A stretch of DNA of 32,000 nt from Bdellovibrionales bacterium (GTDB taxonomy: Bacteria; Bdellovibrionota; Bdellovibrionia; Bdellovibrionales; UBA1609): positions 240,001 through 272,000 of the forward strand of contig OY843585.1 of NCBI GenBank assembly GCA_963692945.1. Reading direction: 5' to 3'. Within the stretch, counting starts at the first letter, position 1. Every line of letters begins with the position of its first letter. Made by a program: the position numbers and the translations under genes. The notes beneath the pieces were generated by a model that was given only the letters and a program-made list of their open reading frames with translations, searched no databases and was not told the origin of the DNA. This document shows, piece after piece, positions 21,767 through 25,386 of this stretch.

Positions 21767-22588
21767 TTGCTCTCGGTCTTAATAGCCAGTGCAATAGGGG
21801 CAATCCTTATTGCAGGAATGGGAAATGCTTTGGTCTCTCAGTCTCAATCCCAATATAAAATTCAAAAAAAATACAAAAGAGATTGGGCTAAAATGAAAAT
21901 CTATCTAGCCATAAACAATTTGGCCACAAACCCTCCTAATCCAAGACCAAGCTCTGCTTGCAAAAAAGAAATTGAAAGAGTTTTAAAATCACAAGATTTG
22001 ATAAGACCTATTGAAGTTACAGACCCAAGCAAAAGCACAGGGGCTAACTTTGAATTAAGCCTTGATAAAGATGATGCAAAATTTACTTTAGATGAGGGAG
22101 TCACTTTAGAGCAATGTTGTGAACTTTATAAACAACCCGACCCCGAAGATGCTTCAAGAACAATAGACAGATGTGGTAGAGTGGCCTCCTTACCCGCATC
22201 TGTTACACCAGGAATAGATCATTGTCATAAAGCTTTTAGCATAAATTTTCAAAGATATGTTTATGGTTGTCGGAAAGGAAGAGGAACTGGTAGAGGAACA
22301 ATTTCAATAGGAGATGTAACACTCCCTGTTGGAACTCAACACTTACTGGTGAGGTTTCGTGCCTCTGTTAGAAAGCAGGGAGCCTGTGGACCTTTTTATG
22401 CTACTTTGCCACCCCTGACTTGCAATCCAGACGGAACAGTAACGCCAAAAACAATCACATTATCTAGACATTCAAAGAGTTATTATCGTCGCAGTAAGCC
22501 CTCTGGGTACACTGAATTTTTAACAAGCACTTCTGCTAGCGCTCACGGATACCATAGGATACAGTTTTACAAAAAACCTAAGCCCTAG
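21767..22588 (+). CDS. Orphan Cys-rich secreted or membrane-anchored protein with a type IV (pseudo)pilin-like N-terminal helix
   Basis: 273 codons from a TTG start. The N-terminus LLSVLIASAIGAILIAGMGNALVSQ is preceded in frame by ..NNPQGST, resembling a prepilin G|(F/S)TLL.VLIA segment. It has 8 Cys. I recognised no other family motif. The frame is open upstream to 21671. Confidence 0.55.
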   Translation: MLSVLIASAIGAILIAGMGNALVSQSQSQYKIQKKYKRDWAKMKIYLAINNLATNPPNPRPSSACKKEIERVLKSQDLIRPIEVTDPSKSTGANFELSLDKDDAKFTLDEGVTLEQCCELYKQPDPEDASRTIDRCGRVASLPASVTPGIDHCHKAFSINFQRYVYGCRKGRGTGRGTISIGDVTLPVGTQHLLVRFRASVRKQGACGPFYATLPPLTCNPDGTVTPKTITLSRHSKSYYRRSKPSGYTEFLTSTSASAHGYHRIQFYKKPKP

Positions 22589-22920
22589 ATTTTCTTGGAA
22601 GAGCCCTCAAAGAAAACGCCGTCTTTGATAGATAAAGAGGGGCTTGAAACCTCTCCCGAAAACCTTGCTGGTGGCTCCATAAGAACACTTTTCTTCGCTA
22701 AAACTTTCCCTGAAAACTCCCCTAACAAAATAAGATGATCCACCTCAATAGTGGCTTCTATTTTAGCCGTAGACTCTATAAGTAAAGTTCCCTGAGCTTT
22801 TATAAGACCTTTAAAGACCCCACCTATTCGCGTTGAACCTTTAAAGCGAAGCTCGCCCTCAAAAAAAGAATCTTCTCCAAGAAGTGCTTGTATGGAATCT
22901 AAATCAGAAAAGGTTTTTAT
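22585..22920 (-). CDS. Bactofilin (DUF583 / CcmA-like polymer-forming cytoskeletal protein) lacking a canonical start codon
   Basis: Absent from the ORF track. My own translation of the minus strand is (ATA)KTFSDLDSIQALLGEDSFFEGELRFKGSTRIGGVFKGLIKAQGTLLIESTAKIEATIEVDHLILLGEFSGKVLAKKSVLMEPPARFSGEVSSPSLSIKDGVFFEGSSKKI*. It shows the typical bactofilin beta-helix repeat pattern. The frame is closed by TAG at 22926-22924. The only early start candidate is ATA (22920-22918), 8 nt after a GGAG. Confidence 0.75.
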   Translation of the reverse strand: MKTFSDLDSIQALLGEDSFFEGELRFKGSTRIGGVFKGLIKAQGTLLIESTAKIEATIEVDHLILLGEFSGKVLAKKSVLMEPPARFSGEVSSPSLSIKDGVFFEGSSKKI

Positions 22921-23771
22921 TTTCTAATCTCCTGCAACTTACTTAAAAGATCTTTAAGCTCTTCTTCTGAATCAAAAGTAAAAGACAGCTTCCCTTTTTG
23001 TTGAGAGGAAAAATCAAGACGAACTTTTCTAAAAAAGATTTGTTCCAAACGAGACAAACTTTTAGAAACCCAAGGAGGAAGAAGTTTTTGTTTTTTAGAA
23101 GTTTTTGTTTTTTTATAAAGCCCCACTAAAGAGCGAACCGTCAGCCCTCCTTTTATACATTGCCTAGCTAACTCTCTTTGTTTTTTAGGATCTTTAAAAC
23201 TCAAAATCTCTTTAGCTTGACTAAAAGAAATCTGACCTTGCTCTAAAAACTCTTGCACCTTTTGATCCAACTGTAAAAGACGAAGGCTGTTTGTAAGAGA
23301 GCTTCTAGAAAGACCAAGAGTTTTAGCTAGCTCTTCTTGGCTAAGCTTTTGTTCTTGCAAAAGGGTTTTGTAAGCTCTTGCTTCCTCTAAGGGATTGAGG
23401 TCTTTTCTTTGAAGGTTTTCCAGTAAAGCCCAAAGAGGAGCTTCTTTTGGTTTCGGGGTTTTTACAATCGCTGGAATTTTATGTAGTCCAGCTTGTGTGG
23501 CCGCTCTCCATCTTCGCTCTCCAGCAATGATTTCATAAGAACCTCCTTTAGCTTGAACTAAAATAGGTTGTAGCACCCCATGGTTTTTTATAGACTGACA
23601 AAGCCCTTCAAGGTCTGCTTTTTCAAACTTTTTTCTTGGCTGACTTTGGTTTGGAAAAATCTTTTCTATGCCTAAGAGCAACACTTGCAACGATGTTTTA
23701 GAAGAAGGTCCCAGGAGAGAATCTAAGCCCCTGCCGAGTCTATCATTTTTCTTCAAAGATTGAATCTCCAT
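22917..23771 (-). CDS. parB: Chromosome partitioning protein ParB/Spo0J
   Basis: 284 aa. It has the ParB box IIAGERRWRAA, LNPLEEA, and the HTH region SQEELAKTLGLSRSSLTNSLRLL. Confidence 0.95.
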   Translation of the reverse strand: MEIQSLKKNDRLGRGLDSLLGPSSKTSLQVLLLGIEKIFPNQSQPRKKFEKADLEGLCQSIKNHGVLQPILVQAKGGSYEIIAGERRWRAATQAGLHKIPAIVKTPKPKEAPLWALLENLQRKDLNPLEEARAYKTLLQEQKLSQEELAKTLGLSRSSLTNSLRLLQLDQKVQEFLEQGQISFSQAKEILSFKDPKKQRELARQCIKGGLTVRSLVGLYKKTKTSKKQKLLPPWVSKSLSRLEQIFFRKVRLDFSSQQKGKLSFTFDSEEELKDLLSKLQEIRK

Positions 23772-23789
23772 AATAAAAAATCCCTCGTT

Positions 23790-24566
23790 TTAAGCTTGCA
23801 ACGAAGAGCTTGATATCTTTTTATCAAATTCAGCAGAAAGATCAAAGTATCTCCTCGCACCTAGCGACTTAGGATCGTATTGGAAAATAGATTTTCCAAA
23901 ACTAGGAGCTTCACTTAAACGAACGTTGCGGGGGACAATGGTTTGAAAAACTTTATCTTCAAAATGTTTTCTAACTTCTGATTCCACTTGATGAGACAAC
24001 TTGTTACGACCATCAAACATAGTGAGCAAGATTCCTTCTAACTTTAAATCGGGATTGAAATTCTCTCTCACTCGGCGAATGGTTTCTATAAGCTGTCCCA
24101 ACCCCTCTAAAGCATAGTACTCACATTGAAGAGGCACTATAAAGCGATGAGAAGCTGTTAGAACATTAACCGTTAGAAAGCCAAGCGACGGGGGGCAATC
24201 TATAAATATAAAATCAAAAGAATCTTCCACAGGTTTTAAACATTCTTTAAATAAAAACTCCCAAGAATCTTCTTGAAAAAATTCGGCTTCAGCTCCTGCG
24301 AGATGACTATCACTAGATATTAAAAAAAGGTTATCCAAATCCGATTTTTGAATAGTCTTTTCCAAAGATGTTTTTCTGCAAATGGCCTCGTAGATAGAAG
24401 GCTTTTTTGAATCAACATTGAAAGCTCGTGAAGCATTTCCTTGAGGATCCATATCTATAAGAAGTGTTTTATAATTTCTAAGTGCTAAAGCGGTGGAAAG
24501 ATTTACAGATGTTGTGGTTTTCCCAACCCCACCTTTTTGGTTAACCAAGCTGATAATGTGTCCCAT
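23790..24566 (-). CDS. parA: Chromosome partitioning ATPase ParA/Soj
   Basis: 258 aa. It has the deviant Walker A NQKGGVGKTTT, LLIDMDPQGN and FIFIDCPPSLG. Confidence 0.95.
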   Translation of the reverse strand: MGHIISLVNQKGGVGKTTTSVNLSTALALRNYKTLLIDMDPQGNASRAFNVDSKKPSIYEAICRKTSLEKTIQKSDLDNLFLISSDSHLAGAEAEFFQEDSWEFLFKECLKPVEDSFDFIFIDCPPSLGFLTVNVLTASHRFIVPLQCEYYALEGLGQLIETIRRVRENFNPDLKLEGILLTMFDGRNKLSHQVESEVRKHFEDKVFQTIVPRNVRLSEAPSFGKSIFQYDPKSLGARRYFDLSAEFDKKISSSSLQA

Positions 24567-24694
24567 GATGCGTCCCTTTTTGAATAGTCTTACAACAAAA
24601 AAAGAATTTGTCTAATGCTCTTTTTCCTCTTTAGGCTTTGGTCTAGGTTTTGAATACTCTTTGACCATTCAAATCTTTAAAAGCCTTATTTTTA

Positions 24695-24714
24695 AAGGTT
24701 CTGCATGGAACCTT
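24695..24714. promoter_or_regulatory. Inverted repeat AAGGTTC-TGCATG-GAACCTT upstream of parA
   Basis: Perfect 7-bp arms with a 6-nt spacer, 129 nt upstream of the parA ATG. No flanking T-run on either strand, so it is not a typical intrinsic terminator. Confidence 0.3.
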
Positions 24715-24770
24715 ATTGATGAGGAATGTTATTTTTTAGGCCTTTTCTAACAATTTTTGGGGTTTTTTAA

Positions 24771-24786
24771 TGTTCCACACAGAACA
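24771..24786. promoter_or_regulatory. Inverted repeat TGTTC-CACACA-GAACA immediately after the rsmG stop (weakly parS-like)
   Basis: 5-bp arms. It shares the GTTC-N6-GAAC core with the palindrome at 24695. It matches 11 of 16 positions of the parS consensus TGTTTCACGTGAAACA, by my own alignment. Confidence 0.25.
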
Positions 24787-25386
24787 TCAAGGCTTGAAAT
24801 GCCTTACTTTTAAAAGAACTCTTTTTGAGTTTTCTATCTCATAACTCTTAAAAACTTCTGCTGAAAACGCACTGTTTTCAAGCCAATCCTTCTCCCACAA
24901 AGCCGTTTTCCACAAAAAAGCCTCCCCCTTTTCTTTGTCTAAAATTTTCTCTAACACCTTTAAAACCTCTTGCAGTGAGGCTGTAGCCTGAGACAAAACT
25001 TTTTTAAACAAAACCCCTATGTCTTCAGCATTTTTACATAAAATTTCTACATTATTGACCTGTAGGTTAAAAACTGTGCTTTTTAAAAACTCTGCTTTTT
25101 TCCTGTTTCTTTCACATAAGATAAAGCCGGTTTCTGGGTATAAAATACTACAAACAAGGCCTGGAAAACCGTTTCCGCTGCCTAGATCTAAAACTTTTTC
25201 CTTAGAATTTTTTAAAATATCTTCCAACAAAGGCACGGAACAAAGGCTCTCTTTTAGGAGAGTTTCTATTTGTTTTTCAAAGTTTTTTCTAGAAAAAAGG
25301 TTGATCTGGCTATTGCCTTCAATCAAGAACCCTTTAAAAGCTTCTATCTGATTTTTTTGCTTTTGGTTGAAAAAAAGATCTTTCAT
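24787..25386 (-). CDS. rsmG: 16S rRNA (guanine527-N7)-methyltransferase RsmG/GidB
   Basis: 199 aa. It has the SAM-binding motif VLDLGSGNGFPGL, lies downstream of mnmG, and its start overlaps the mnmG stop by 4 nt. Confidence 0.88.
   Translation of the reverse strand: MKDLFFNQKQKNQIEAFKGFLIEGNSQINLFSRKNFEKQIETLLKESLCSVPLLEDILKNSKEKVLDLGSGNGFPGLVCSILYPETGFILCERNRKKAEFLKSTVFNLQVNNVEILCKNAEDIGVLFKKVLSQATASLQEVLKVLEKILDKEKGEAFLWKTALWEKDWLENSAFSAEVFKSYEIENSKRVLLKVRHFKP

Follow-up and report, generated by a model that had tools for sequence, protein, structure and literature searches.

A bactofilin gene behind parB in a Bdellovibrionales genome probably initiates at a conserved AUA codon

The window analysed here is a stretch of 32,000 nucleotides (nt), bases 240001-272000 of contig OY843585.1 (assembly GCA_963692945.1), from a Bdellovibrionales genome that consists of a single contig of 1.56 Mb with about 32% GC. 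The nearest named relatives of this genome are metagenome-assembled genomes labelled Bdellovibrionales or Oligoflexia. On the minus strand of the window, mnmG, rsmG, parA and parB are followed by an open frame for a bactofilin, the start codon of which is the subject of this work. The parA gene (23790-24566) is the first of a parA-parB-bactofilin string, an order also found in the related sequences L038, L039, L042 and L044. The parB gene (22917-23771) encodes 284 amino acids (aa) and ends in AGA AAA TAA; its product is complete, with the N-terminal, helix-turn-helix and C-terminal (dimerisation) domains all recognized by Pfam.

The bactofilin frame (22585-22923, minus strand) is closed upstream by an in-frame TAG (22924-22926), after which it reads AAA ATA AAA ACC TTT TCT GAT. 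A start further 5′ is therefore impossible. Two codons beyond this TAG lies the proposed initiation codon, ATA (22918-22920), from which the coding sequence (22585-22920) runs for 111 codons to its own TAG stop (22587-22585). Residues 13-108 (22597-22884) align with positions 2-97 of the 98 in the profile of the Pfam family Bactofilin (PF04519, DUF583), scoring 81.8 bits (cut-off 27.9; E=4.4e-23). Since the domain starts at residue 13, the protein must begin before that residue; read from the ATA, it has short tails, 12 residues ahead of the domain and 3 after it. The first in-frame ATG, GTG or TTG is a GTG (22741-22743) that lies 60 codons in, deep inside the domain, and a standard caller of open reading frames (ORFs) therefore returns a truncated fragment of 52 aa only. 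ATA is listed as a start in NCBI translation table 11, and with the start list of that table the bactofilin ORF is called from the ATA. The codon shares 2 nt with the TAA of parB (22919-22917), making ATAA, and its first base is the last base of the parB lysine codon. The core of a Shine-Dalgarno (SD) sequence, GGAG (22929-22932, within CAGGAGAT), sits 8 nt ahead of the ATA, inside the parB tail. The original prediction had described a 111-codon bactofilin frame of this kind, overlooked by start-based callers, together with the closing TAG, the deep position of the canonical starts, the overlap with the parB stop and the upstream GGAG, and all of these were borne out.

A bactofilin orthologue is present in 40 of the 41 related genomes searched, and the orthologues are 100-149 aa long; a scan of metagenome contigs added one distant relative only (32%). 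In eight of nine other species of the genus a normal ATG stands 8-16 residues ahead of the domain, as in MEKESLQVIL... and MSKNLALLNDEPIQALLEEG. The closest species, G005 (JBPCUO010000001, 84% identity), shares the ATA with the window, in the same place, and no canonical start precedes its domain. In total, ATA occurs at the identical position in five independent assemblies, namely those of the window, L004/L033 (JBPCUO010000001), L038, L039 and L044 (GCA_029782575.1). These represent four lineages, L004 and L038 being counted as one. The possibility of a base-call error, against which the original prediction had advised resequencing, is excluded, because four other independent assemblies carry the same ATA.

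The junctions, with the SD and the ATA in capitals, read as follows: ttgcaGGAGattagaaaATAaaaaccttttctgatttagat (window), ttatGGAGGattaaaaaATAaaagtttttccagatttagat (L039), ttaGGGAGGgtcaaaaaATAaaggcattttcagatttagat (L044), ctaGGGGAGacagacaATAaaaactttttctgatttagat (L004) and ctaGGGGAGacgaacaATAaaaactttttctgatttagat (L038). None of the five has an ATG, GTG or TTG between the upstream in-frame stop and the domain; in L004 and L038 the first canonical codon is a TTG at the first residues of the domain. That TTG corresponds to CTT in the window, the second ATA of the window corresponds to ACA elsewhere, and no near-cognate codon besides the proposed start is common to all five assemblies. The codon after next past the ATA varies (ACC, ACT, GTT or GCA), while the ATA itself is invariant. 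The proposed start and the SD are thus conserved throughout the clade, but the frame relation between parB and bactofilin is not. Where the TAA of parB overlaps the ATA (window, L039 and L044), bactofilin lies in the +2 (equivalent to -1) frame relative to parB. In L004 and L038 it lies in the +1 frame, owing to a one-base difference in the parB tail (which ends in GETDNKNFF*). There, parB ends at a TGA whose first base lies 14 nt past that of the ATA, 5 codons further downstream than the stop in the window, which gives parB an overlap of 17 nt with the start of bactofilin.

A maximum-likelihood tree built from 73 orthologues unites the five ATA sequences in a single clade (support 97/91), whose sister is the ATG-bearing pair P0001 and P0002 (95/85). 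The tree rests on about 115 columns only, so its deeper forks are unresolved, but the ATA clade is supported. The sister orthologue P0002 (L040) begins with ATG AAA GAG TTT TCA GAT CTT GAA, its Met falling exactly at the position of the ATA, and the two N-termini read MKEFSDLE in P0002 and (M)KTFSDLD in the window. A single ATG-to-ATA change in the common ancestor of the clade would be the simplest history. In public databases the proteins of this clade are N-terminally truncated and start at different internal TTG, ATG or GTG codons: P0003 with 100 aa (L038), P0047 with 82 aa (L039) and P0071 with 58 aa (L044, NCBI GCA_029782575.1). The gene in the window would be called with 52 aa or missed.

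Selection on the frame was estimated by the Nei-Gojobori method among four assemblies from three ATA lineages, L044 being left out. In pairwise comparisons the synonymous divergence (dS) is 1.1-1.5 and the ratio of nonsynonymous to synonymous divergence (dN/dS) is 0.08-0.11. Over the 59 codons 2-60 alone, all of them ahead of the first canonical start of the window, the ratio is 0.09-0.16. The bactofilin frame contains no stop and no frameshift in any of the five ATA assemblies, despite dS above 1; decay of this kind, which according to the original prediction would have indicated a pseudogene, is thus absent from these relatives. In addition, the internal canonical codons differ in position between lineages. 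The low dN/dS of about 0.1, including codons 2-60, the lack of stops and frameshifts and the shifting of the internal canonical codons all point to translation of the full-length frame.

The strength of the SD was assessed as the duplex energy of the 19 nt ahead of each start with the genome's own 16S 3′ tail (GAUCACCUCCUUUCU). The five ATA genes give -7.4 (window), -8.4, -8.6, -9.3 and -11.9 kcal/mol. Among the ATG or GTG orthologues of the genus, 10 of 11 lie at -0.3 to -3.5 kcal/mol (one weakly positive), and L007, with -8.8 kcal/mol, is the lone exception. In this genome, 6.7% of random 19-mers, and 19% of the regions upstream of the first ATG in long ORFs, pair with the tail at -7.4 kcal/mol or better. 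Throughout the ATA clade a GGAG, GGAGG or GGGAGG sits 7-8 nt ahead of the ATA. It is kept while the encoded end of ParB differs (QEIRK*, WRIKK*, GETDNKNFF*). The retention of GGAG in spite of differing ParB amino acids and, in one lineage, a different frame argues for selection on the SD itself. Evidently, the C-terminal tail of ParB is free to vary, and the SD embedded in it appears not to be.

Taken together, these observations lead us to infer, with a probability of roughly 0.8, that the frame represents an intact and expressed gene for bactofilin, placed as third cistron in the parA-parB-bactofilin string and initiating at AUA (22920-22918). Initiation at the ATA, one of two options left by the original prediction, is strongly supported by the conservation of the codon at the position of the sister ATG, by the strong SD and by purifying selection over the whole frame. 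The ancestral ATG would have been replaced by ATA a single time, at the base of a small clade within this Bdellovibrionales genus, with purifying selection maintained ever since. The AUA would presumably pair with the CAU anticodon of the ordinary initiator tRNA-fMet, mismatched at the third position, and the strong SD 7-8 nt upstream, in the parB tail, would place the 30S subunit on AUA-AAA. The string is probably co-transcribed, its genes being separated by very short gaps; no sigma-70-like promoter site was found in 22300-24900, and none between parA and bactofilin, although this is a weak test. Probably the AUA is used in addition for reinitiation by ribosomes that have just terminated on parB, whose stop overlaps the AUA as ATAA in three lineages and lies 14 nt downstream of it in the fourth. 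Synthesis would be attenuated and sensitive to initiation factor 3 (IF3), and the output of bactofilin is expected to be below that from an AUG and below the output of ParB.

Three considerations weigh against this interpretation. First, the five ATA assemblies go back to one mutational origin, and because of this single origin the combination of ATA and strong SD counts as one evolutionary event, not five. Second, near-cognate initiation is weak in other bacteria. Third, the three lineages with ATAA also carry A-AAA-TAA or AAA-AAA-TAA, on which a minor slippage product is possible.

The translation apparatus of the genome offers no special device for reading AUA. None of its 34 tRNAs has the anticodon UAU. 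The initiator tRNA, one of three with the anticodon CAU, is canonical, with a C1xA72 mismatch and the GGG/CCC pairs of the anticodon stem, and a dedicated AUA-reading initiator tRNA is therefore ruled out. The gene for IF3, infC (1308816-1309589 of the contig, minus strand, outside the window), itself has ATT as its start codon, with GAGGA ahead of it, as in E. coli. At its C-terminus, the product is extended by about 65 aa that contain seven GVKPSS repeats. Frames for an extended IF3 (220-367 aa) are found throughout the genus, also in species whose bactofilin starts with ATG (G005 is without an IF3 match); the extension is therefore not peculiar to the ATA clade, and an altered IF3 was rejected as the cause of ATA use.

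The alternative that survives best is one in which bactofilin is made by termination and reinitiation only. The SD would then merely hold the ribosome that has finished parB, de novo initiation by 30S subunits would be negligible and bactofilin would be strictly slaved to ParB. Several data are consistent with this. The ATAA overlap of three lineages has the geometry of the common ATGA coupling overlap. In the orthologues of the genus that were compared, the position of the parB stop relative to the first base of the start ranges from 14 nt downstream to 13 nt upstream. Most ATG or GTG orthologues (L005-L012, L040-L043) have essentially no SD and start -13 to +5 nt from the parB stop; such genes, almost without an SD and starting within a few bases of the parB stop, suggest that translational coupling is ancestral. 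Nor was a promoter-like site found between parA and bactofilin. Coupling of this type is reported to need overlaps or very short distances (PMC10666635). However, the ATA clade has gained and keeps a strong SD at the canonical spacing, as de novo initiation needs. Moreover, a ribosome that terminates on parB in L004 and L038 would be 14 nt past the ATA and would have to move backwards to reach it. We therefore consider exclusive reinitiation improbable; in any case, it is a variant of AUA initiation and not a contradiction of it. In a bolder extension, the AUA and the ATAA overlap would make bactofilin obligatorily dependent on finished parB translation and on the level of IF3, thus fixing a low ratio of bactofilin to ParB, and this AT-rich, reduced lineage would tolerate AUA at several selected genes, namely bactofilin and secreted ankyrin paralogues, with an ordinary initiator tRNA. 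This is a speculative proposal, and the odds are against it.

The original prediction had also raised the possibility of a programmed -1 frameshift, in which tRNA-Lys slips on the A-AAA before the parB TAA and a ParB-bactofilin fusion is made, with no free bactofilin. The window, L039 and L044 do have bactofilin in the -1 frame, their parB genes end in AGA or AAA followed by AAA TAA, a P-site slip site beside a stop, and an SD-like element lies upstream of the run of A, as in dnaX. Nevertheless, neither the slip site nor the direction of the shift is conserved, whereas the ATA and the SD are: L004 and L038 lack the A-AAA-TAA site and are in the +1 frame. Frameshifting would thus be required in the -1 direction in some lineages and in the +1 direction in others, at different sites. 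In the remaining orthologues compared, the start is separated from parB or offset to it in all three frames. In a fusion the ATA would simply encode an Ile of the linker and be free to vary, and yet it is conserved. Folding of the junction RNA gave a minimum free energy of -24.4 versus -24.2 for shuffled sequences (z = -0.07), that is, no stimulatory structure, and ParB reaches its full length, C-terminal domain included, at the normal stop. The fusion was for these reasons abandoned as very improbable.

Least credible of all is a decaying pseudogene, in which the full-length gene was inactivated by the change of ATG to ATA, or the exclusive synthesis of a truncated protein from an internal GTG or ATG: such a change is of the commonest inactivating kind of transition in an AT-rich, reduced genome and gene callers yield fragments of 52-100 aa only, but purifying selection acts over the whole frame, codons 2-60 included, no stop or frameshift has accumulated in any of the five assemblies, the internal starts are unconserved in position and the 52-aa fragment would be without half of the beta-helical domain.

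The genome was also scanned for leaders that resemble coding sequence and precede the first canonical start. Of the 24 candidates obtained, no more than a few are convincing: bactofilin, infC (ATT) and three ankyrin paralogues, with hflX (CTG) probable. Relaxed start use throughout the genome was on this basis rejected; non-canonical starts are rare here, as in other bacteria. In hflX (723087-724355 of the contig, minus strand, outside the window), the HflX N-terminal domain begins 5 residues ahead of the first canonical start, and the likely start is a CTG 6 nt after GGAGA.

The ankyrin paralogues are part of two large tandem arrays (991823-997547 and 1277543-1298551 of the contig, outside the window; L045 and L055), made up of genes for secreted ankyrin-repeat proteins, with 169 matches in all. 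About 20 of these paralogues begin with TAA ATT ATT ATG AAA ATC or TAA ATT ATG AAG TTT, and three have ATA at the place of that ATG. The latter (996078-997547 with 489 codons, 993420-993899 with 159 and 991823-992302 with 159) are intact ORFs without any canonical start, matching Pfam Ank with E values down to 1e-140. Between the two copies of 159 codons there are 26 nonsynonymous changes versus 1 synonymous change (pN/pS 7.4). Such a ratio is not that of neutral decay, and these copies therefore appear to be expressed; it suggests diversifying selection and perhaps a role in interaction with a host. By these sequence criteria, ATA initiation is apparently tolerated at more than one locus and is still rare in the genome.

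Two further observations concern bactofilin and its surroundings. Downstream, the TAG stop of bactofilin overlaps the stop of a convergent Cys-rich ORF of 273 aa (21767-22588, plus strand) within CTAG (22585-22588), and no terminator-like site was found between the two. Elsewhere in the genome, a second, weak match to the bactofilin domain (680019-680321, plus strand; locus L002; 28.7 bits, just above the cut-off) lies in an open frame of 217 aa.

The immediate value of these results is practical and lies in annotation; their biological interest is modest. They correct a recurring error in public annotation, by which the gene is called as fragments of 100, 82, 58 or 52 aa, or missed, in at least four assemblies. 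They also provide a clean natural example of a non-AUG start kept over long divergence together with a compensating strong SD, and they remove the more exciting idea of a ParB-bactofilin fusion as unsupported. For work on chromosome segregation and bactofilins in Bdellovibrio-like bacteria, they indicate that this bactofilin is probably a low-level product coupled to ParB.

The position of the gene is a familiar one. In bd3904 of Bdellovibrio bacteriovorus and bacM of Myxococcus xanthus, a bactofilin likewise comes right after parAB, in the order rsmG-parA-parB-bactofilin (PMC10547168, PMC5703909), and like the products of these genes the present protein is a small single-domain bactofilin with short tails. 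The two known genes were compared by synteny only; the other orthologues compared within the genus start at ATG or GTG. The original prediction had invoked the bactofilins that organize ParABS in M. xanthus. The synteny is clear, but the analogy is weaker than stated: the syntenic gene is bacM, whose product, though encoded next to parAB, is reported not to be involved in the positioning of ParABS, a task of BacNOP and PadC, which are encoded elsewhere (Lin et al. 2017, PMC5703909). Cell shape is the reported field of action of BacM (PMC5703909), and synteny therefore does not prove a role in segregation. Furthermore, no PadC-like adapter was found, as the single match to ParB_N (PF02195) in the whole genome is ParB itself. 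A role of this bactofilin in chromosome segregation is possible and is not implied by its position.

Frameshifting of the dnaX type, in the -1 direction, involves the sequence A AAA AAG flanked by an SD upstream and a hairpin downstream. Three of the four ATA lineages resemble dnaX in having a run of A followed by a stop, with an SD-like element upstream. Unlike dnaX, however, the junction has no conserved frame relation (+1 in L004 and L038) and no downstream structure, and its ATA is conserved as a codon.

A much closer parallel is provided by known non-AUG starts. In E. coli, infC and pcnB start at AUU. In S. aureus, the AUA starts of ccpN and citZ, which stand behind strong SDs, give about 10-30% of the signal obtained with AUG; the start of infC in that species is also AUA, and that of cvfC1 is AUU (PMC13009471). 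Like these AUA and AUU genes, the bactofilin gene has no canonical start, a conserved AUH codon at a spacing defined by the SD, and a strong or extended SD paired with a weak codon. The effect to be expected is that of the infC and ccpN type, reduced and IF3-sensitive initiation, in a genome whose own infC starts at ATT. In contrast to them, the gene encodes a cytoskeletal protein, overlaps the stop of the preceding parB (ATAA) and shows no evident autoregulatory logic. As a non-AUG start accompanied by a strong SD, the ATA of bactofilin is a new, conserved instance of a known phenomenon.

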